A stretch of DNA of 8,139 nt. Origin: a virus. Its lineage: Duplodnaviria; Heunggongvirae; Uroviricota; Caudoviricetes. Each line of letters starts with the position of its first letter. Within the stretch, counting starts at the first letter, position 1. Positions 1 through 8,139 of this stretch are shown one piece after another. A model generated the notes under the pieces. That model searched no databases, was not told the origin of the DNA, and worked only from the letters and a program-made list of their open reading frames with translations. The stretch lies in the IMG/VR virus record IMGVR_UViG_2703718820_000003, positions 1 to 8,139 of that record; one strand, given 5' to 3'. Position numbers and translations under genes: made by a program.

Positions 1-1
1 G

Positions 2-250
2 ATCGACCCGGTTAAGGAAGCTGAAGCCTGGAGAATTCAGATCCGGGGTGGTGCAGCGACAGAATCTGACTGGGTGCGTGCCGGCGGGCGCAATCCGGAT
101 GAGGTCAAACGTCGCCGCAAGGCTGAAATTGATGAAAACAGCAGACTGGGGCTGGTCTTTGATACTGACCCCGTCAACGACAAAGGAGGCAACAGTGCCG
201 GAACTGAACGACAGTATCAGCGTGACACCGAAAGCCAGCATGAAGAATAA
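2..250 (+). CDS. Putative portal protein, C-terminal fragment (5' end outside window)
   Basis: Frame 2 is open from the window edge to TAA at 248-250 with no in-frame start, so the ORF track missed it. The translation (..ESDWVRAGGRNPDEVKRRRKAEIDENSRLGLVFDTDPVNDKGGNSAGTERQYQRDTESQHEE*) is charged and protein-like, unlike the N-terminal extension of the 48..2219 ORF. Portal assignment rests only on its position upstream of the protease/capsid gene. Confidence 0.4.
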   Translation: MDPVKEAEAWRIQIRGGAATESDWVRAGGRNPDEVKRRRKAEIDENSRLGLVFDTDPVNDKGGNSAGTERQYQRDTESQHEE

Positions 251-2219
251 ATCCTGGTTCAGGATGCAGGCTGGGGGGCCGGGTGACGCGGATATTTATA
301 TTTATGACGAGATTGGTTTCTGGGGAGTTACCGCGAAGCAGTTTGTCAGCGAACTGAATGCTCTGGGTGATATCACCCACATTAATCTCCACATCAACTC
401 ACCGGGTGGCGATGTCTTTGAAGGCATCGCCATTTTTAATTCCCTGAAAAATCAGGGGGCGACCATTACCGTGTATGTGGATGGCGTTGCCGCCTCGATG
501 GCATCTGTGATTGCGATGGCCGGTGATACGGTCATTATGCCGGAAAATGCCTTCATGATGATCCATAAGCCATGGGGATTCAGTGGCGGGGATGCTGAGG
601 ATATGCGCAGTTATGCTGATTTGCTGGATAAAGTCGAATCGGTACTGTTGCCAGCCTATGCGCAGAAAACCGGAAAAACCACCGATGAAATTGCCGCCAT
701 GCTGGCGGATGAAACCTGGATGTCCGGTGCCGAATGTCTGGCACACGGATTTGCTGACCAGGTAACACCCGCTGTTGAGGCAATGGCATGTATTCAGTCA
801 AAACGTACAGAGGAATTTAAAAAGATGCCGGAATCCATCCGAAACATGATTACTCCGCCACGCAACAGTGCCCCGCGTGATACCACAGTGACAATCCCTG
901 CACCGGCGGTAACAGAACCATCACCGGTACCGGCAGTGTCTGATGAGGCGACCATTCGCGCCCGCGTTATGGCTGAGCAGAAAGCCCGCATGTCAGGCAT
1001 TAACGATCTGTTTGCCATGTTTGGCGGTCGCTATCAGGCGCTTCAGGCGCAGTGTTTGGCCGATCCTGACTGTTCGCTGGAAATGGCCCGCGAGCGCCTT
1101 CTGAATGAAATGGGCAAGGAGTCATCGCCGACCAACAAAAACACACCGGCCCATATTTATGCCGGAAACGGCAATTTTGTGGGAGACGGGATCCGCCAGG
1201 CGATGCTGGCCCGTGCCGGATTTGAAAATGTCGAGAAGGATAACGCCTATAACGGGATGACCCTGCGTGAATGGGCTCGCATGTCACTGACGGAGCGCGG
1301 TATTGGGGTGGCCAGTTATAACCCCATGCAGATGGTCGGGCTGGCGCTGACGCACAGCACCTCTGATTTTGGCAATATCCTGCTGGATGTGTCGAACAAG
1401 GGGCTGATCCAGGGCTGGGAGGAATCAGAGGAAACCTTCCAGAAGTGGACCCGTAAGGGCCGCCTGTCAGACTTCAAAACAGCGTATCGCGTGGGGATGG
1501 GCGGTTTTGGTTCTCTGCGTCAGGTTCGTGAGGGGGCGGAGTATAAATACATCACCACCTCAGATCGCAAGGAAACCATCGCACTGGCCACTTACGGGGA
1601 AATTTTCTCCATCACCCGTCAGGCCATTATCAATGATGACCTGAATATGCTGGTGGATGTGCCGATGAAGATGGGGCGCGCGGCGAAGGCAACAATTGGT
1701 GACCTGGTCTACAAGGTGCTGACGGATAACCCGAAACTGTCAGACGGCAAGGCGCTGTTCCATGCCGATCACAAAAATATTGCCACCGGGGGGATCTCGG
1801 TTTCCGGACTGGATGCGGCCCGTCAGATGATGCGCCTGCAGAAAGAAGGCGAGCGCGCCCTGAATATCCGTCCGGCCTTTATGCTGGTACCGGTGGCACT
1901 GGAGACGGTGGCGAACCAGACCATCAAATCGGCCAGTGTGAAAGGGGCGGATGCAAACGCCGGTGTCATTAACCCCATCCAGAACTTTGCTGAGGTGATT
2001 GCGGAAGCGCGTCTTGATGCGGCAGATCCGAAAACCTGGTATCTGGCGGCGGCACAGGGCACAGACACCATTGAAGTGGCCTGGCTGGATGGTGTGGACA
2101 CGCCATACATTGATCAGCAGGAAGGTTTCACCACTGACGGCATTGCCACAAAAATTCGTATTGATGCCGGTGTGGCACCACTTGACTGGCGCGGTCTGGT
2201 GCGTTCGTCGGTGGCCTGA
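195..2219 (+). CDS. Tripartite head gene: ClpP-like (S14) prohead protease, linker/scaffold, HK97-fold major capsid domain (Gifsy-2-type)
   Basis: Single open frame. Preferred start is GTG 195-197, 5 nt after a perfect AGGAGG (184-189); ATG 240 is the alternative. ClpP catalytic motifs are visible: Ser in GVAASMA (codon 495-497) and His in MMIHKPWG (codon 564-566). A Pro-rich linker (ITPPRNSAPRDTTVTIPAPAVTEPSPVPAV) and an Ala/Gln-rich helical segment follow, then a ~330 aa C-terminal domain resembling HK97-fold/Mu gpT-like capsid proteins (from memory). It ends in tandem stops TGA TAA (2217-2222). Confidence 0.85.
   Translation: MPELNDSISVTPKASMKNKSWFRMQAGGPGDADIYIYDEIGFWGVTAKQFVSELNALGDITHINLHINSPGGDVFEGIAIFNSLKNQGATITVYVDGVAASMASVIAMAGDTVIMPENAFMMIHKPWGFSGGDAEDMRSYADLLDKVESVLLPAYAQKTGKTTDEIAAMLADETWMSGAECLAHGFADQVTPAVEAMACIQSKRTEEFKKMPESIRNMITPPRNSAPRDTTVTIPAPAVTEPSPVPAVSDEATIRARVMAEQKARMSGINDLFAMFGGRYQALQAQCLADPDCSLEMARERLLNEMGKESSPTNKNTPAHIYAGNGNFVGDGIRQAMLARAGFENVEKDNAYNGMTLREWARMSLTERGIGVASYNPMQMVGLALTHSTSDFGNILLDVSNKGLIQGWEESEETFQKWTRKGRLSDFKTAYRVGMGGFGSLRQVREGAEYKYITTSDRKETIALATYGEIFSITRQAIINDDLNMLVDVPMKMGRAAKATIGDLVYKVLTDNPKLSDGKALFHADHKNIATGGISVSGLDAARQMMRLQKEGERALNIRPAFMLVPVALETVANQTIKSASVKGADANAGVINPIQNFAEVIAEARLDAADPKTWYLAAAQGTDTIEVAWLDGVDTPYIDQQEGFTTDGIATKIRIDAGVAPLDWRGLVRSSVA
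1649..1656 (+). other. Chi octamer GCTGGTGG
   Basis: Exact 8-mer on the + strand inside the capsid domain coding region. A single occurrence is within chance expectation. Confidence 0.5.
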
Positions 2220-2233
2220 TAACCGCGTTATCA
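2217..2233 (+). other. Perfect inverted repeat TGATAAC-cgc-GTTATCA overlapping the capsid tandem stop codons
   Basis: Read directly from sequence: 7-bp arms with a 3-nt spacer. Could form an RNA hairpin or be a dyad-symmetric protein-binding site. Confidence 0.4.
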
Positions 2234-2241
2234 CAATCACT

Positions 2242-2260
2242 GCCCGAAAGGGCTTTTTTT
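2242..2260 (+). terminator. Candidate intrinsic (rho-independent) terminator downstream of the capsid gene
   Basis: GCCC-GAAA-GGGC (4-bp GC stem, GNRA-type loop) immediately followed by T7 (2254-2260). The stem is short, so it is probably partial/attenuating. Confidence 0.45.
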
Positions 2261-2271
2261 ATGCCTGAAAA

Positions 2272-2290
2272 ACAGCCCCACAGGGGCTGT
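2272..2290 (+). other. Strong hairpin ACAGCCCC-aca-GGGGCTGT just upstream of the next gene's ribosome-binding site
   Basis: 8-bp perfect GC-rich stem read from sequence. On the minus strand it would be followed by a U5 run (complement of A 2268-2272), so it could act as an antisense-direction terminator or an mRNA stability element. Confidence 0.4.
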
Positions 2291-2306
2291 CCGGAGAAAC
2301 AGCATT

Positions 2307-2633
2307 ATGGCGAAAAATTTTGTACAGGACGGCACCACCATTGAACTGGTGAATGCCGGAGATCATACCATCCTGAGCGGTGCTGCGGTGGTGGTCGGCA
2401 GTATGGTGGCAGTGGCCATTACCGATATTCCTGCCGGTGATGCCGGTGACGGTTTTGCCGAAGGCGTGTTCCTGCTGCCCAAACAGTCTGCTGACGATAT
2501 TCAGTCCGGCGCGGTGGTTTATCTGAAGGACGGGGTTGTGCAGCTGGCTGCAGACGGTGCGGTGGCCGCGGGGGTAGCCTGGGAAAATGCCCCTGCAAAC
2601 AGCGCCACTGTGGCGGTAAAAATCAATGTCTGA
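2307..2633 (+). CDS. Small Gly/Ala/Val-rich head protein, DUF2190-like; possible capsid decoration/cement protein
   Basis: 108 aa ORF with GGAG at 2293-2296 upstream of ATG 2307. It sits right after the capsid gene, and its stop overlaps the next start (ATGTCTGA, 2626-2633). The functional call is from family recollection and position only; it shows no obvious similarity to lambda gpD. Confidence 0.6.
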   Translation: MAKNFVQDGTTIELVNAGDHTILSGAAVVVGSMVAVAITDIPAGDAGDGFAEGVFLLPKQSADDIQSGAVVYLKDGVVQLAADGAVAAGVAWENAPANSATVAVKINV

Positions 2634-2907
2634 TCTGTTTACGCGAATGTGTTGCCGGATGGACGGGGCGACCGTTCGGGTGATGGGCAAACAGGCGGAG
2701 ATTAACGGCGTCGTGTACGACGTGATGCCGGAGGAAGAGTCCGCGGAGATGGGGGCGCTTTCGGGCAGCCAGCTGTCACTGGTGGTGTTTTCAGCCCGGT
2801 ACCGTCCGGCCCGTCATGATGTTGTTGTGTTTGCGGGGCGCACACTGACGGTGACCCGTTATGACACGTACAACGGTAAACCCCGGATTTTTGTCGAACA
2901 GGAATGA
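2626..2907 (+). CDS. Head-tail joining/head completion protein, lambda gpFII-like
   Basis: 93 aa ORF coupled to both neighbours (start overlaps the upstream stop; its stop overlaps the Z region in ATGA at 2904-2907). Size, position before Z and overall pattern resemble gpFII-type proteins; the family assignment is from memory. Confidence 0.6.
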   Translation: MSDLFTRMCCRMDGATVRVMGKQAEINGVVYDVMPEEESAEMGALSGSQLSLVVFSARYRPARHDVVVFAGRTLTVTRYDTYNGKPRIFVEQE

Positions 2908-2909
2908 GT

Positions 2910-3533
2910 ATGGCAATAAAAGGTCTGGCGCAGGCCATGAAAAATCTGGATGCAATTGATCGCCGTGCCGTTCCCCGGGCCTCTGCCACGACACTGAACC
3001 GCGTGGCGGGGGCCATTATTGCGAAAACGGCCTCTTCAGTTGCCAGGAAGCTGGCCGTTCCCCGCCGTCTTATCCGTGCCCGCATCCGGTTAAGTCCGGC
3101 ACGACCGGATAAGGTTTACGCAAAGGTTTACATCAATACCGGCAACCTGCCCGCCATCAAACTGGGGGAGGCCCGCGTTCGACTTTCCCGCAGAAAACGG
3201 AGAAAGAAAGGACAGCGTGCGGCCCTGAAAGGGGGCGGCAGTGTGCTGATTGTGGGGAAAAGACGGATCCCGGATGCCTTTGTCACCCGCCTGGCTAACG
3301 GACGCTGGCATGTGATGCAGCGTATGCCGTGGGCATCATCGTCCACCGGCGCGGACAGCAAAGGGAGGCCGAAACGCCACCGTCTGCCGATCGAAGTGGT
3401 GAAGATTCCGACTGCCGGACCGCTGGCAGAAACCTTTGAACGTGAACGGGAGCGGATGTACCGGGAAAAATTACCGGCGCAGATGATGAAAGCCATGACG
3501 CATCAGTTACGCCTGGTGCTGAAAAGAAAATGA
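2910..3533 (+). CDS. Z: Minor tail protein Z (tail completion)
   Basis: Translation from ATG 2910 (MAIKGLAQAMKNL..RLSRRKRRKKGQR..NGRWHVMQR..HQLRLVLKRK) closely matches lambda gpZ as I recall it, including the polybasic RRKRRKKGQR motif. AGGA sits 7 nt upstream of ATG 2910; the ORF-track start at 2904 has no usable SD spacing. Confidence 0.9.
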   Translation: MAIKGLAQAMKNLDAIDRRAVPRASATTLNRVAGAIIAKTASSVARKLAVPRRLIRARIRLSPARPDKVYAKVYINTGNLPAIKLGEARVRLSRRKRRKKGQRAALKGGGSVLIVGKRRIPDAFVTRLANGRWHVMQRMPWASSSTGADSKGRPKRHRLPIEVVKIPTAGPLAETFERERERMYREKLPAQMMKAMTHQLRLVLKRK

Positions 3534-3545
3534 CAGGGAGGGTGT

Positions 3546-3944
3546 ATGAAACACCGTGAAATACGGGCGGCAATATTGTCTGCTCTGAAAGAAAATATTT
3601 CTGACCGGGTGACCTGGTTTGATGGCCGTCCGGTATTTATTGATGAACAGGAACTGCCTGCGGTGGCGGTTTATCTGACAGATGCTTCTGCGACGGAGGA
3701 GTTTGTTGACGAGGGGACCTGGGAGGCCGTGCTTCATATCGAGGTGTTTCTCAGGGCGAAAGAGACGGACTCCGTGCTGGATATGTGGATGGAAGAAAAA
3801 ATCCTTCCGGCGCTGGAGGCGGTTCCCGGGCTCAGTGCATTACTGCTGAAGATGAATCTTCAGGGGTATGACTACCGCCGGGATGATGAATATATGATGT
3901 GGGGATCGGCAGATCTCCTGTGGAAAATTACCTACGAGATGTGA
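3546..3944 (+). CDS. U: Tail terminator protein U
   Basis: 132 aa, [67 protein letters not shown], very similar to lambda gpU (131 aa) end to end. GGGAGGG RBS at 3536-3542. Confidence 0.92.
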
Positions 3945-3951
3945 GGACGAT

Positions 3952-4701
3952 ATGGCAACACCAAATCCCCTGGCGCCGGTAAAAGGTTCCGGCACCACGC
4001 TCTGGGTTTATACCGGAAATGGCGATGCCTGGGCAAACCCGCTGTCAGATGATGACTGGACGCGCCTGGCAAAAATAAAGGATCTGACACCCGGCGAGAT
4101 GACGGCGGAATCTTACGACGATAACTATCTGGATGATGAGGATGCTGACTGGGTATCCACCGGGCAGGGGCAGAAATCCGCCGGTGACACCAGTTTTACG
4201 CTGGCCTGGAAGCCCGGTGAGAAAGGGCAGCGTGATTTGATTGCCTGGTTTGACAGCAGCGAGACCCGGGCCTACAAAATCCGCTTCCCGAACGGCACGG
4301 TGGATGTGTTCCGGGGCTGGGTGAGCGCCATTGGTAAATCCGTGACCGCCAAAGAAGTGATCACCCGCACTGTGAAAATCACCAATATTGGTCGTCCGTC
4401 GCTGGCTGAGGATCGGGGAGAAATCACACCGGTCACCGGTATTACCGTGACGCCACTAACGGGGAATGTGGCAAAAGGTCAGAATATCACCCTGACCGTG
4501 GCCGTTCAGCCGGAAGGCGCAACGGATAAAACGTTCCGCGCAACCTCAGCGAATCAGAATTTCGCCACCATTACCGTGAAGGGGAACACGATCACCGTGA
4601 AAGGTGTTGCGGCAGGTAAAGCGCAGATCCCTGTTGTCACCGGCAATGGTGAGTTTGCGGCGGTGGCGGAGATCACCGTCACGGATGGCGCTGCGGGCTG
4701 A
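3952..4701 (+). CDS. V: Major tail tube protein V with C-terminal Ig-like (Big_2-type) domain
   Basis: 249 aa. The N-terminal ~155 aa ([68 protein letters not shown]) is near-identical in pattern to lambda gpV. The C-terminal ~90 aa (..[33 protein letters not shown]) is the Ig-like domain. GAGGA RBS at 3943-3947. Confidence 0.93.
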
Positions 4702-4716
4702 GGGGGGAGATAAAGC

Positions 4717-5139
4717 ATGTTTCTGAAAACAGAACAATTTGAATATAACGGGGTGTCCGTCACGCTGTCGGAGCTGTCTGCGCTGCAGCGGTTTGATTAT
4801 ATGAAGTTTGTTTCAGACGCAGCACAACAGGAGACAACGGAGCATGATGCCGTGCACATTAACCAGCGATATCTGGAAACGGCATCCCTGCTTGTGGCGA
4901 TGTCGCTATGGCATTCCCATTCCCTCAAAGGCACTCTGGCCTCTCCGGAGACAGAGATGCAGCAGATCCGCCGTGAAGTGATGCTGGGATGGCCTGCTGA
5001 TGCACTGAATCAGGCAACGAACCGGGTGCTTTATCTTTCAGGTATGCTGGATAACCGGCACGATGCCGATCCTGAACCAGCCGGGAAAGCAGAAGCGACT
5101 GAGCCGGTAACATCAAAAAAGCATTCGAAGGCGAGCTGA
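4717..5139 (+). CDS. G: Tail assembly chaperone G
   Basis: 140 aa, MFLKTEQFEYNGVSVTLSELSALQR.. matches the lambda gpG N-terminus. G-rich RBS at 4702-4709; stop TGA 5137-5139. Confidence 0.9.
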   Translation: MFLKTEQFEYNGVSVTLSELSALQRFDYMKFVSDAAQQETTEHDAVHINQRYLETASLLVAMSLWHSHSLKGTLASPETEMQQIRREVMLGWPADALNQATNRVLYLSGMLDNRHDADPEPAGKAEATEPVTSKKHSKAS

Positions 5140-5474
5140 ACTTTGTCCTGAAACTGGCGCGTGAGATGGGGAGAGCCGACTGGCGCGCCATGCTTGCCGG
5201 GATGACATCCACCGAATATGCCGACTGGCGACATTTTTACTGCACGCATTATTTTCAGGATACCCAGCTGGATATGCATTTTTCCGGGCTGACGTACGCC
5301 GTACTCAGCCTGTTTTTTTGCGATCCGGATATGCATCCGGCGGATTTCAGCCTGTTCGCTCCGGAGGCAGAGGAAGGGCAGGCAGAGACGCCGGACGAAA
5401 ATGATGTACTGATGCAGAAGGCGGCGGGCCTCGCCGGTGGAGTCCGTTTCGGGGAGGAGGGAAGGAGGTTGTGA
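4717..5474 (+). CDS. T: Tail assembly protein G-T fusion via programmed -1 ribosomal frameshift (join 4717..5121, 5121..5474)
   Basis: The T frame is open only from 5103 (TGA at 5100-5102) and overlaps the G frame across the slippery heptamer. After a -1 slip it reads ..KKAFEGELNFVLKLAREMGRADWRAMLAGMTSTEYADWRHFY.. to TGA 5472-5474. The ORF-track Met at 5166 has no SD, and lambda T is known to be made only as G-T. Confidence 0.8.
5115..5121 (+). other. -1 frameshift slippery heptamer A_AAA_AAG for G-T
   Basis: In the G frame the codons are tcA AAA AAG (5113-5121), an X_XXY_YYZ heptamer in correct phase, 5 codons before the G stop. After slippage the T frame continues AAA AAA GCA. Confidence 0.75.
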
Positions 5475-5517
5475 CAGTTATTGATGGCATCAGAGGACAT
5501 TTCAGGAGGTGACCACG

Positions 5518-8139
5518 ATGGCAGGTAATTTTGCCGATCTGACAGCCGTGCTGACACTGGATTCTGCCCGTTTTTCTGAAGAGGCAGCGCGGGTAAAAAA
5601 AGAGCTGGGTGAAACCAGTGCGCTTGCTGATTTGATGTCCGGGAAAGTCAGTCAGTCTTTCAGAAAACAGGCTGATGCTGCTGAGCAGAGTCTGAGCCGA
5701 CAGGCGCTGGCTGCACAAAAAGCCGGGATATCAGTCGGACAGTATAAGGCTGCCATGCGCACACTGCCCGCACAGTTCACGGATATTGTCACTCAGCTTG
5801 CCGGTGGTCAGAATCCCTTCCTTATCATGCTGCAGCAGGGGGGGCAGATCAGCGATTCATTCGGTGGACCGCTCAGCCTGCTTACCCTGCTGAAGGAGGA
5901 ACTTCTCGGGATCAGGGATGCCTCTGAATCATCAGAGGATTCGCTGTCAGATACGGCAAATGCACTGGCTGAAAATGCCCGGAATGCCGGTGAACTGGGA
6001 CGATTTATGTCGGTGGCCCGTGTGGCGGCAGGTGGCGGGGTTGCCGTACTGGCCGCGCTTGCTGCCGCTGCCTGGCAGGCAGAGCAGGCTGACCGGGCCT
6101 TGTTGCGTTCACTGACCCTGACCGGAGGGGCGGCTGCCACCACAACGGCAGAATTGTGGAAAATGGCCGGGGTGATCAGCGATGAAGCCGGTGGTGGTAT
6201 CAGACAGGCGGCAGAAAATCTGGCCCGTCTGGCAGAAAGCGGGAAATATACCGCCGGGCAGCTACGGATCATGGGGGAAACCTCTCAGAGATGGCTGCAG
6301 ACGGTGGGGGACGATGCCGGGAAGGTGGAAAAAGCCTTTGAAGGGATTGCAGCTGATCCGGTGAAGGCGCTGGCCTCCCTGAATCAGCAGTATAACTTCC
6401 TGAGCGTTTCCCAGTTACGCCATATTGATGAGCTTGAGCGCACGAAAGGTAAACAGGCTGCGGTAACGGAGGCGATGTCCCTGTTTGCGGATGTCATGAA
6501 TGCACGTCTGGAGCAACTTGATAAAGCGGCCACGCCGGTGGAAAAAATCTGGGACGATGTTAAAACCTGGACTTCTGACGCATGGGCATGGATAGGTGAT
6601 CATACACTGGGGGCACTCAGTCTGATCACTGACGTGGTGGCCGGAACCGTTGAACAGGTGAAGCTGCTGCTTGTGCAGGGGGATCTGGCGCTGGCTGAAT
6701 TTATTCAGTCAGCCTGGGAAACGACAAAGAATGTGCCCGGCGTTGGTGCGTTGTTTGGTGAACTGGCAGAAGAGAACCGCGTATTTATTGAGAAAACAAA
6801 ACGCGATGAACTGGCGCTGAGAAAATCCATTGCGGAACGGGATGCGCGTATACGCCAGGGGGAAATGGGGTACATCAACCGTTCGCGTGCAACAGGCGTC
6901 AGCAAAGGTCCGGGGCAGCAGGAAGCCGTCAGCCGTCTGGCTGAAGAGCTGACAGGTAAAAAGCATACATCACCGAAAACGCGCTCTGCCGGGGAGAGGG
7001 AAGAGGAGCAGGCAAGAGAGGCTCTGCTTGCCCTTGAAGCTGAGCTCAGGACGCTGGAAAAACACAGCGGTGCGAATGAGAAAATCAGCCGGCAGCGCCG
7101 TGATTTATGGAAGGCGGAAAGTCAGTATGCGGTCCTGAAAGAGGCTGCCACGAAACGACAGTTATCCGGGCAGGAAAAATCCCTGCTGGCCCATGAGAAA
7201 GAGACGCTGGAGTACAAACGCCAGCTGGCTGAGCTGGGCGACAAGGTTGAATACCAGAAACGGCTGAATGAGCTGGCACAGCAGGCGGCACGGTTTGAAG
7301 AGCAGCAGAGCGCGAAGCAGGCCGCCATCAGCGCAAAAGCCCGTGGTCTCACTGACCGTCAGGCTCAGCGGGAGTCTGAAGAGCAGCGTCTTCGTGACGT
7401 GTATGGCGATAATCCGCAGGCGCTGGCCCGGGTCACCGGGGCACTGAAACAGACATGGGCGGATGAAGACATGCTGCGCGGTGACTGGCTGGCCGGGCTG
7501 AAGTCCGGCTGGGGGGAGTGGGCGGAAAGTGCGACGGACAGTTTTTCGCAGGTTAAAAGTGCTGCCACGCAGACCTTTGATGGTATTGCACAGAATATGG
7601 CGGCGATGCTGACCGGTGCAGAGGCAGACTGGCGGGGATTCACCCGTTCGGTGCTGTCCATGATGACAGAAATCCTGCTTAAACAGGCCATGGTGGGCAT
7701 TGTCGGGCGTATCGGCAGCGCCATTGGCGGTGCTTTCGGTGGTGGTGCATCTGCTTCCTCGGGGACGGCCATTGAGGCTGCGGCGGCGAACTTCCATTTC
7801 GCGACCGGAGGATTTACGGGGACGGGCGGCAAATATGAGCCTGCGGGGATAGTTCACCGCGGGGAGTTTGTTTTCACGAAAGAGGCAACCAGCCGGATAG
7901 GTGTGGGGAATCTTTACCGCCTGATGCGCGGCTATGCGGAAGGGGGGTATGTGGGTGGTGCCGGAAGTCCGGCGCAGATGCGGCGGGCGGAAGGTATTAA
8001 TTTTAATCAGAACAATCACGTGGTGATTCAGAACGACGGTATCAACGGACAGGCGGGGCCGCAGCTGATGAAGGCGGTGTATGACATGGCCCGCAAGGGG
8101 GCGCAGGATGAGCTCCGGCTGCAGTTGCGTGATGGCGGT
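5518..8139 (+). CDS. H: Tail tape measure protein H (3' end outside window)
   Basis: Open for 874 codons to the window edge. The N-terminus (..EQSLSRQALAAQKAGISVGQYKAAMRTLPAQFTDIVTQLAGGQNPFLIMLQQGGQISDSFGG) and the C-terminal ~350 aa (..LLALEAELRTLEKHSGANEKISRQRRDLWKAESQYAVLKEAA.. to ..NNHVVIQNDGINGQAGPQLMKAVYDMARKGAQDELRLQLRDGG) closely match lambda gpH as recalled. The middle ~300 aa are divergent. AGGAGG at 5503-5508. Confidence 0.93.
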   Translation, partial: MAGNFADLTAVLTLDSARFSEEAARVKKELGETSALADLMSGKVSQSFRKQADAAEQSLSRQALAAQKAGISVGQYKAAMRTLPAQFTDIVTQLAGGQNPFLIMLQQGGQISDSFGGPLSLLTLLKEELLGIRDASESSEDSLSDTANALAENARNAGELGRFMSVARVAAGGGVAVLAALAAAAWQAEQADRALLRSLTLTGGAAATTTAELWKMAGVISDEAGGGIRQAAENLARLAESGKYTAGQLRIMGETSQRWLQTVGDDAGKVEKAFEGIAADPVKALASLNQQYNFLSVSQLRHIDELERTKGKQAAVTEAMSLFADVMNARLEQLDKAATPVEKIWDDVKTWTSDAWAWIGDHTLGALSLITDVVAGTVEQVKLLLVQGDLALAEFIQSAWETTKNVPGVGALFGELAEENRVFIEKTKRDELALRKSIAERDARIRQGEMGYINRSRATGVSKGPGQQEAVSRLAEELTGKKHTSPKTRSAGEREEEQAREALLALEAELRTLEKHSGANEKISRQRRDLWKAESQYAVLKEAATKRQLSGQEKSLLAHEKETLEYKRQLAELGDKVEYQKRLNELAQQAARFEEQQSAKQAAISAKARGLTDRQAQRESEEQRLRDVYGDNPQALARVTGALKQTWADEDMLRGDWLAGLKSGWGEWAESATDSFSQVKSAATQTFDGIAQNMAAMLTGAEADWRGFTRSVLSMMTEILLKQAMVGIVGRIGSAIGGAFGGGASASSGTAIEAAAANFHFATGGFTGTGGKYEPAGIVHRGEFVFTKEATSRIGVGNLYRLMRGYAEGGYVGGAGSPAQMRRAEGINFNQNNHVVIQNDGINGQAGPQLMKAVYDMARKGAQDELRLQLRDGG

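Follow-up and report, generated by a model that had tools for sequence, protein, structure and literature searches.

In phage lambda, translation of the scaffold protein Nu3 begins at an internal start codon, in frame, within the protease gene C. Herpesviruses likewise produce nested in-frame chains from UL26/UL26.5, namely a minor chain that bears the protease and a major assembly protein that is free of it. Here we describe a gene in which head protease, scaffold and major capsid protein are encoded by a single open reading frame (ORF), and which probably contains an internal start of this kind. The gene is located in a stretch of viral DNA of 8,139 nucleotides (positions 1 to 8,139 of the IMG/VR record IMGVR_UViG_2703718820_000003), which is the head-to-tail module of a lambdoid prophage. 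In the following, the whole stretch is named the window; positions refer to the window, and the portal end, the fusion gene with its parts, the terminator-like hairpin and the cement gene lie on its plus strand.

Fusions of head genes have been reported for several phages. In the passage of PMC12315714 that deals with it, the capsid gene of the Salmonella phage Gifsy-2 is cited as fused protease and coat genes, with reference to Effantin et al. (2010, Virology 402:355). The same study is given as the source for the trimeric cement protein of Gifsy-2 where this protein is mentioned in PMC8538268. Phage HK97 has covalent cross-links instead of a cement protein (PMC8538268). Protease-(scaffold)-capsid fusions are a recurring feature of small actinobacteriophages, such as those of the Arthrobacter clusters AM/AU/AN and the Microbacterium cluster EE, and show little or no sequence similarity among one another (PMC5513430; PMC7302621).

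Protease, scaffold and coat protein are encoded by one gene

The original prediction, made from the bare sequence, had placed protease, assembly scaffold and coat protein in one ORF of about 675 codons at 195-2219. The respective frame is free of stop codons from nt 48 up to its TGA (2217-2219); counted from position 195, it contains 674 codons and codes for a protein of 73.1 kDa. This protein was assigned to the NCBIfam model NF045540 (ClpP-like prohead protease/major capsid protein fusion protein) with 1005 bits at a cutoff of 475, and the match extends over residues 32-672, corresponding to positions 2-651 of the 652 profile positions. PHROG 133 matches the protein end to end. The Pfam scan that had been proposed as a check found two domains in one polypeptide: CLP_protease at nt 330-767 with E=3.9e-36, and Phage_capsid_4 at nt 1344-2207 with E=5.4e-56. 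RefSeq carries a 98%-identical gene under the NF045540 fusion name. No separate protease, scaffold or coat gene is present between the portal and tail genes of the window. The presumed relationship to the tripartite gene of Gifsy-2 was borne out as well: the Gifsy-2 gene (STM1034.3n) is 61.7% identical over 97% of the length and is found in the same gene order.

Of 5426 complete E. coli genomes, 1769, or about a third, contain the gene at a coverage of at least 80%. The same architecture is found in 73 aligned homologues, whose protein identity is 47-77%, and in thousands of database clusters. Due to this recurrence, the three-module architecture is not a product of chance. An exhaustive profile search with the scaffold-coat part identified 11,029 related representative clusters, and the majority of the 150 best are as long as a fused protein; a scan of viral contigs returned close relatives only, and a scan with another protein gave no matches. 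This type of fusion gene is already known and curated, and it is very common in prophages of E. coli and Salmonella, including Shiga-toxin phages. As part of the best overall explanation, it is very likely that ORF 195-2219 is the orthologue of the Gifsy-2 tripartite capsid gene in an E. coli lambdoid (Stx-type) prophage. With equally high confidence, the same explanation holds that the head-tail module obtains its head protease, its scaffold and its coat protein from this gene alone.

The practical value of the identification lies in annotation. GenBank records give the fusion gene at least three different start codons and five product names, and the names in databases vary between "Clp protease ClpP", "scaffolding protein", "Nu3", "head maturation protease" and "major capsid protein". 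What our analysis adds is a better start codon, the Glu at the third triad position, the mapping of the module boundary and evidence from sequence comparison that favours a nested start. The original prediction had contained neither the Glu nor the nested ATG825, and it did not deal with the RefSeq start ATG240.

Altered copies were encountered as well. E. coli O157:H7 Sakai carries, in its VT1-Sakai prophage (AP000400.1, 1221-2530), a copy that is split by IS629 at the linker between scaffold and coat, equivalent to nt ~1115 of the window; one half is listed as "scaffolding protein" and the other as "hypothetical protein". With the gene split, this prophage is expected to be incapable of forming heads of its own. 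Furthermore, more than ten database clusters comprise proteins of 1158-1159 residues in which the reading frame of the portal protein continues into that of the protease-scaffold-coat protein. In the two cases examined, the frame is switched at different points of the overlap between portal and fusion gene (equivalent to 195-250 of the window). These proteins therefore look like the result of independent 1-nt indels or of sequencing errors, and not like a programmed event.

A conserved, probable internal start signal precedes the scaffold and coat modules

Downstream of the protease-coding part, an in-frame ATG at position 825 (Met211, followed by Pro) is preceded by a candidate Shine-Dalgarno (SD) motif, GAGGA at 810-814. 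The motif is located 10 nt before the ATG and has a duplex energy of -6.0 kcal/mol, which equals that of the starts of the cement and the major tail protein in the window. Initiation at this codon would give a nested product encoded by 825-2219, which comprises 464 codons (50.5 kDa) and consists of linker, scaffold and coat protein without the protease.

Comparison of homologues suggests that the candidate motif is maintained at the nucleotide level. The ATG is kept in all 73 homologues, and in the 61 distinct ones AGGA or GGAG is always found 9-10 bases upstream of the equivalent position. The residue encoded at the motif varies between Glu, Gln, Lys and Gly while AGGA or GGAG stays. The codon used there is GAG, CAG or AAG, and never GAA, CAA or AAA, even in the AT-rich Pasteurellaceae. 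As a synonymous-site control, we used 40 representatives of less than 80% pairwise identity. The third base of codon -5 is a G in 39 of 39 representatives, compared to 17-75% in 19 other conserved Glu/Gln/Lys columns. Among the conserved start-codon columns of the alignment, that of ATG825 is the only one with strong anti-SD pairing in every sequence, the weakest value being -5.1 kcal/mol. In addition, residues 203-218 mark the least structured and most AT-rich 40-nt segment of the gene (mean of the 40 representatives). Four distant homologues were inspected at the DNA level; the two that contain the Met also contain an SD, and the two that lack the Met have none.

A similar signal was found in a second fusion family, NF045541 (prohead protease/major capsid protein fusion protein). 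In 17 of 22 loci of this family, the junction between protease and linker contains an SD-like motif (AAGGA, GAGGA, AGGAG or GGAG) that is followed after 6-8 nt by an ATG and then mostly by a Pro codon. This signal is located in a linker that is otherwise hypervariable.

The gene contains, in summary, an in-frame internal ATG with a candidate ribosome-binding site that is conserved beyond the needs of the protein sequence, as would be expected of a nested gene of the lambda C/Nu3 type. It is therefore probable, as judged from sequence comparison, that ATG825 is a functional internal start and gives rise to a protease-free scaffold-coat protein of 50.5 kDa. We also lean, with less confidence, towards a broader view. 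According to it, the "single" gene of the gammaproteobacterial Gifsy-2/Stx-prophage clade would be two nested genes that set the ratio of protease to coat protein in the procapsid, and the same device would recur in NF045541. This recurrence suggests an origin of such fusions in which read-through joins a protease gene to a scaffold-coat gene whose own start is retained.

If this is true, the nested start would explain how the phage avoids packing a protease with each coat subunit, of which a T=7 shell contains about 415. The principle of lambda C/Nu3 and of herpesvirus UL26/UL26.5 would then extend to a gene that includes the coat protein.

Start codon and catalytic residues of the full-length protein

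The start at position 195, a GTG, is preceded by the SD motif AAGGAGG (183-189) with a spacer of 5 nt, and relatives have GTG or ATG behind the same motif at the equivalent position. The anti-SD duplex energy amounts to -11.6 kcal/mol, whereas the start annotated in RefSeq by PGAP, ATG240, is without an SD (-0.1 kcal/mol). Because of this difference and of the conservation of SD and start in relatives, we favour GTG195, in agreement with the original prediction, over ATG240.

The N-terminal module is a ClpP-like (S14-type) head maturation protease domain encoded by nt 288-767. A peptidase fold had been expected within residues ~20-190; NF045542 (ClpP-related head maturation protease) matches residues 32-190 with 223.6 bits at a cutoff of 120, and PF00574 (CLP_protease) scores 125 bits at a cutoff of 20.2. 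Solved ClpP chains were matched with E-values down to 2e-18. The assignment of the fold is based on these matches; the AlphaFold model of the full-length protein (674 aa), computed from a shallow alignment of 75-99% identity, has a pLDDT of 37.

Both catalytic residues named in the original prediction are in frame and align with ClpP. Ser101 (codon TCG, 495-497) is part of the sequence GVAASMASV and corresponds to E. coli ClpP Ser111, and His124 (codon CAT, 564-566) is part of MMIHKPW and corresponds to ClpP His136 (precursor numbering). The two residues also align with the solved ClpP chains. At the position of the catalytic Asp185 of ClpP, the protein contains Glu173 (codon GAA, 711-713). 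Ser, His and Glu are each present in 73 of 73 homologues; the adjoining Asp172 is variable among them. From this alignment, the phage protease family appears to use a Ser-His-Glu triad.

Linkers, scaffold and coat domain

The part of the protein that follows the protease was modelled with AlphaFold from Met211 onwards (464 residues), using a diverse alignment of 78 sequences; the mean pLDDT is 90.3. A flexible, presumably disordered linker encoded by nt 825-944 comes first (pLDDT 51-66), and it is hypervariable in length and sequence. Its Pro-rich character, which had been noted for about nt 840-940, is reflected by a Pro content of 23% over nt 840-944.

Next is a scaffold-like domain of three helices (nt 945-1121, pLDDT 94-98), which comprise residues 41-64, 71-79 and 85-99 of the 464-residue product and share the conserved motif R..GI...F..FG....L...C..D....A...LL. 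The segment had been described beforehand as helical and rich in Ala and Gln. It is indeed helical and Ala is mildly enriched (16% compared to 12% overall), but it is not notably rich in Gln. By analogy, a role as a scaffold can be proposed for this domain from its position and from the description of Gifsy-2.

A second flexible linker, SSPTNKNTPAHIYAGNGN, connects the scaffold-like domain to the coat domain (nt 1122-1175). Its pLDDT is 58-67 and drops below 50 at AHIYAG. The conserved sequence HIYAGNGN stands behind a variable TP(T/S)N part, and coat-only homologues start near this linker. As a conserved motif in a flexible inter-domain linker, AHIYAGNGN (nt 1149-1175) is the most likely candidate for the maturation cleavage site, judged from alignment and model. 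A cut at this site would leave a coat protein of ~38 kDa. The boundary between the scaffold and coat modules, mapped to nt 1122-1175, falls within the interval of nt 1000-1250 in which a processing site had been predicted.

The C-terminal module (nt 1176-2216) is the major capsid protein domain, and the predicted structure has the HK97 fold, as anticipated. The Pfam model Phage_capsid_4 (PF25209) matches with E=5.4e-56, and a profile search found solved capsid proteins of the Mu GpT type (E=1.4e-9). In the AlphaFold model, in which the pLDDT of this domain is mostly above 90, a hairpin (residues 250-264) and a long helix (residues 273-301 of the 464-residue product) can be seen. Foldseek identified 369 matches in the PDB at E<=0.001; the best 50 are all shells of HK97-fold capsids or encapsulins and include HK97 itself. 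The probability of the matches to HK97, to other phage capsids and to encapsulins is 1.00.

A model of head assembly and its alternatives

Gene content and folds are taken from the present analysis, and the steps of assembly were deduced from HK97 gp4/gp5, lambda C/Nu3/E and Gifsy-2. Translation from GTG195 would yield the 73-kDa chain and is likely to be coupled to that of the portal gene, whose end overlaps the start. Ribosomes would also start at ATG825 behind the conserved GAGGA and produce the 50.5-kDa scaffold-coat chain without protease. Only a part of the chains, those of 73 kDa, would then bring a protease along, as is the case for lambda C/Nu3 and for herpesvirus UL26/UL26.5. Both chains would co-assemble by means of their coat domains around the portal to form a T=7 procapsid, with the linkers, the scaffold domains and the tethered proteases on its inside. 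The tethered protease might then digest scaffold, linkers and itself, i.e. everything N-terminal to the coat domain. The cut would most likely occur in the AHIYAGNGN linker and leave the ~38-kDa coat protein. The shell would expand on DNA packaging, and the cement protein would bind and stabilise it.

Several observations weigh against this interpretation. Fused homologues of 36-45% identity often contain Ala, Val, Ile or Pro at the position of Met211, and a Met occurs within 8 residues of it in just 23 of 61 distant fused homologues. Since the Met is so often missing there, an internal start is evidently no general requirement of such fusions; the device is clade-specific, and a polyprotein alone can suffice elsewhere. 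The spacing of 10 nt between SD and ATG is on the long side, and in none of the database records inspected (RefSeq, Gifsy-2, mEp460 and F10 among those) is the nested coding sequence annotated. A literature search, to which the primary Gifsy-2 paper was out of reach, found no description of a nested start. Stand-alone scaffold-coat proteins beginning with "MP..." had to be rejected as artefacts, as they originate from a contig of just 1.5 kb, from an ORF that runs off the end of its contig and from a draft genome with a frameshift. The missing Met of many distant homologues, the spacing beyond the optimum and the lack of an annotated nested gene would agree with a phage that makes the 73-kDa polyprotein only, such that each coat subunit carries its own protease. 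AGGA and ATG at 810-827 would then be a ribosome pause that allows the protease to fold, an RNA-level signal, or the constrained remnant of an ancestral gene boundary. We consider this rather unlikely. A pause or a remnant leaves the invariant ATG and the gene-wide minimum of mRNA structure at this place unexplained, and neither accounts for an SD that is present with the Met and absent without it. A remnant, moreover, would be lost under the saturation of synonymous sites at 47-77% protein identity.

It must also be considered that the activity of the protease is assumed and that its third triad residue is a Glu, compared to Asp in ClpP. The replacement could mean that the ClpP-like domain is dead and serves merely as an internal scaffold or plug, with any processing performed by a host protease. 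This is very improbable: Ser, His and Glu are invariant in the 73 homologues while neighbouring residues vary, the domain scores well above the cutoff of a curated model of ClpP-related head maturation proteases, and Glu can replace Asp as the acidic member of a catalytic triad. Finally, the fusion might be an artefact or a product of decay, for example due to a lost stop codon or a frameshift in a cryptic prophage. Prophage genes often decay, and besides the IS629-split copy of VT1-Sakai there is a frameshifted copy in a Vibrio draft genome. An intact, uninterrupted fused ORF is, however, kept in the plaque-forming or induced phages mEp460, F10, ASU11 and LLS and in 73 diverse genomes; curated families exist for the fusion, and the copy of the window aligns over its full length without gaps or stops. 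Decay has next to no probability and is already effectively refuted by this conservation.

Genes adjacent to the fusion gene

The window shares 98% identity with Stx2a-converting phages and 95% with VT1-Sakai. It contains, in this order, the 3' end of the portal gene, the fusion gene, a cement gene, a PF13856 gene, lambda-like Z/U/V/G/T genes and the start of the tape measure gene. The portal ORF (1-250, in another frame) ends at position 250 and is named "phage portal protein" in RefSeq at the equivalent position; it shares 56 nt with the start of the fusion gene. The gene of the capsid cement or decoration protein (2307-2633; Pfam Phage_cement_2, E=7.8e-19) is found at the same position in Gifsy-2, mEp460 and F10.

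Between the fusion gene and the cement gene, a terminator-like element consists of the short hairpin GCCCGAAAGGGC and a run of seven T residues (2244-2261). The segment 2217-2275, which contains the hairpin, has a fold z-score of -2.45, and in mEp460 a rho-independent terminator is annotated at the same place. Possibly it acts as a leaky terminator and thereby adjusts the expression of the genes that follow. No Rfam matches, meaningful repeats or convincing promoter were found in or around the fusion gene, and minus-strand ORFs that overlap it (e.g. 1740-2240), for which no family search was made, were judged to be spurious, as they lie wholly inside the conserved coding region.

The ATG of a 93-codon ORF at 2626-2907 overlaps the end of the cement gene by 8 nt. 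Its product matches PF13856, a family with the name "Gifsy-2" that is characterised in Pfam as a prophage ATP-binding sugar transporter, and is named "DNA breaking-rejoining protein" in RefSeq. The position after the cement gene suggests that it is a head-tail joining protein, and both database names look like misnomers. The major tail protein (3952-4701) is of the lambda V type and, like lambda gpV, has a C-terminal Ig-like domain (Big_2). Close to the end of the gpG homologue, an in-phase slippery heptamer A AAA AAG (5115-5121) was found, from which the -1 frame reads into the gpT ORF; this is the frameshift expected for the G-T tail chaperones. The sequence GGGAAAG (5083-5089) was rejected as a frameshift site because it is out of phase. 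In a related genome, RefSeq labels T as an incomplete pseudogene.

Comparison with known head modules

Among the described systems, Gifsy-2 has the same three modules in the same order in one ORF, with the portal gene upstream and a cement-type protein and lambda-like Z/U/V/G/T/H tail genes downstream. The internal signal is also present, as GAGGAG-N9-ATG, in the Gifsy-2 gene. The differences are the host, a sequence divergence of about 38%, and the start codon of the window copy, a GTG preceded by a strong SD. For Gifsy-2, the structure of the capsid, its processing and its decoration have been shown; for the prophage of the window they are predicted, and the gene of the cement protein is present.

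The NF045541 proteins, e.g. that of Ralstonia phage YO122_2, are homologous in linker, scaffold and coat, with 33% identity from residue 204 on. Their N-terminal protease domain, in contrast, is unrelated to ClpP and has no Pfam hit. Judged by these sequences, NF045541 appears to be an independent fusion. The fusions of actinobacteriophages resemble the gene of the window, by description, in the idea of merged head functions; hosts and genome sizes differ.

HK97 offers a parallel at the level of protein design. The putative ATG825 product, an N-terminal assembly domain followed by an HK97-fold coat protein, would correspond to gp5, and the coat domain matches the Prohead II and Head II structures by fold. 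The HK97 protease gp4, however, is encoded by a separate gene and belongs to another family. A nested protease-free product, as proposed for ATG825, is also the feature shared with herpesvirus UL26/UL26.5. There, UL26.5 is expressed from an internal promoter, the coat protein has its own gene, and the protease is of another family.

The lambda genes C/Nu3/E/D have the same functions at the same genomic position, and both phages possess a decoration or cement protein. In lambda, the coat protein E is encoded by a separate gene, the protease is no close relative of the ClpP-like domain, and the cement protein of the window is assigned to Phage_cement_2 and is not called gpD. The logic of Nu3 within C is the one deduced here for ATG825. 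Because the "single gene" probably contains this nested start, its contrast with lambda C/Nu3 is probably weaker than first stated.

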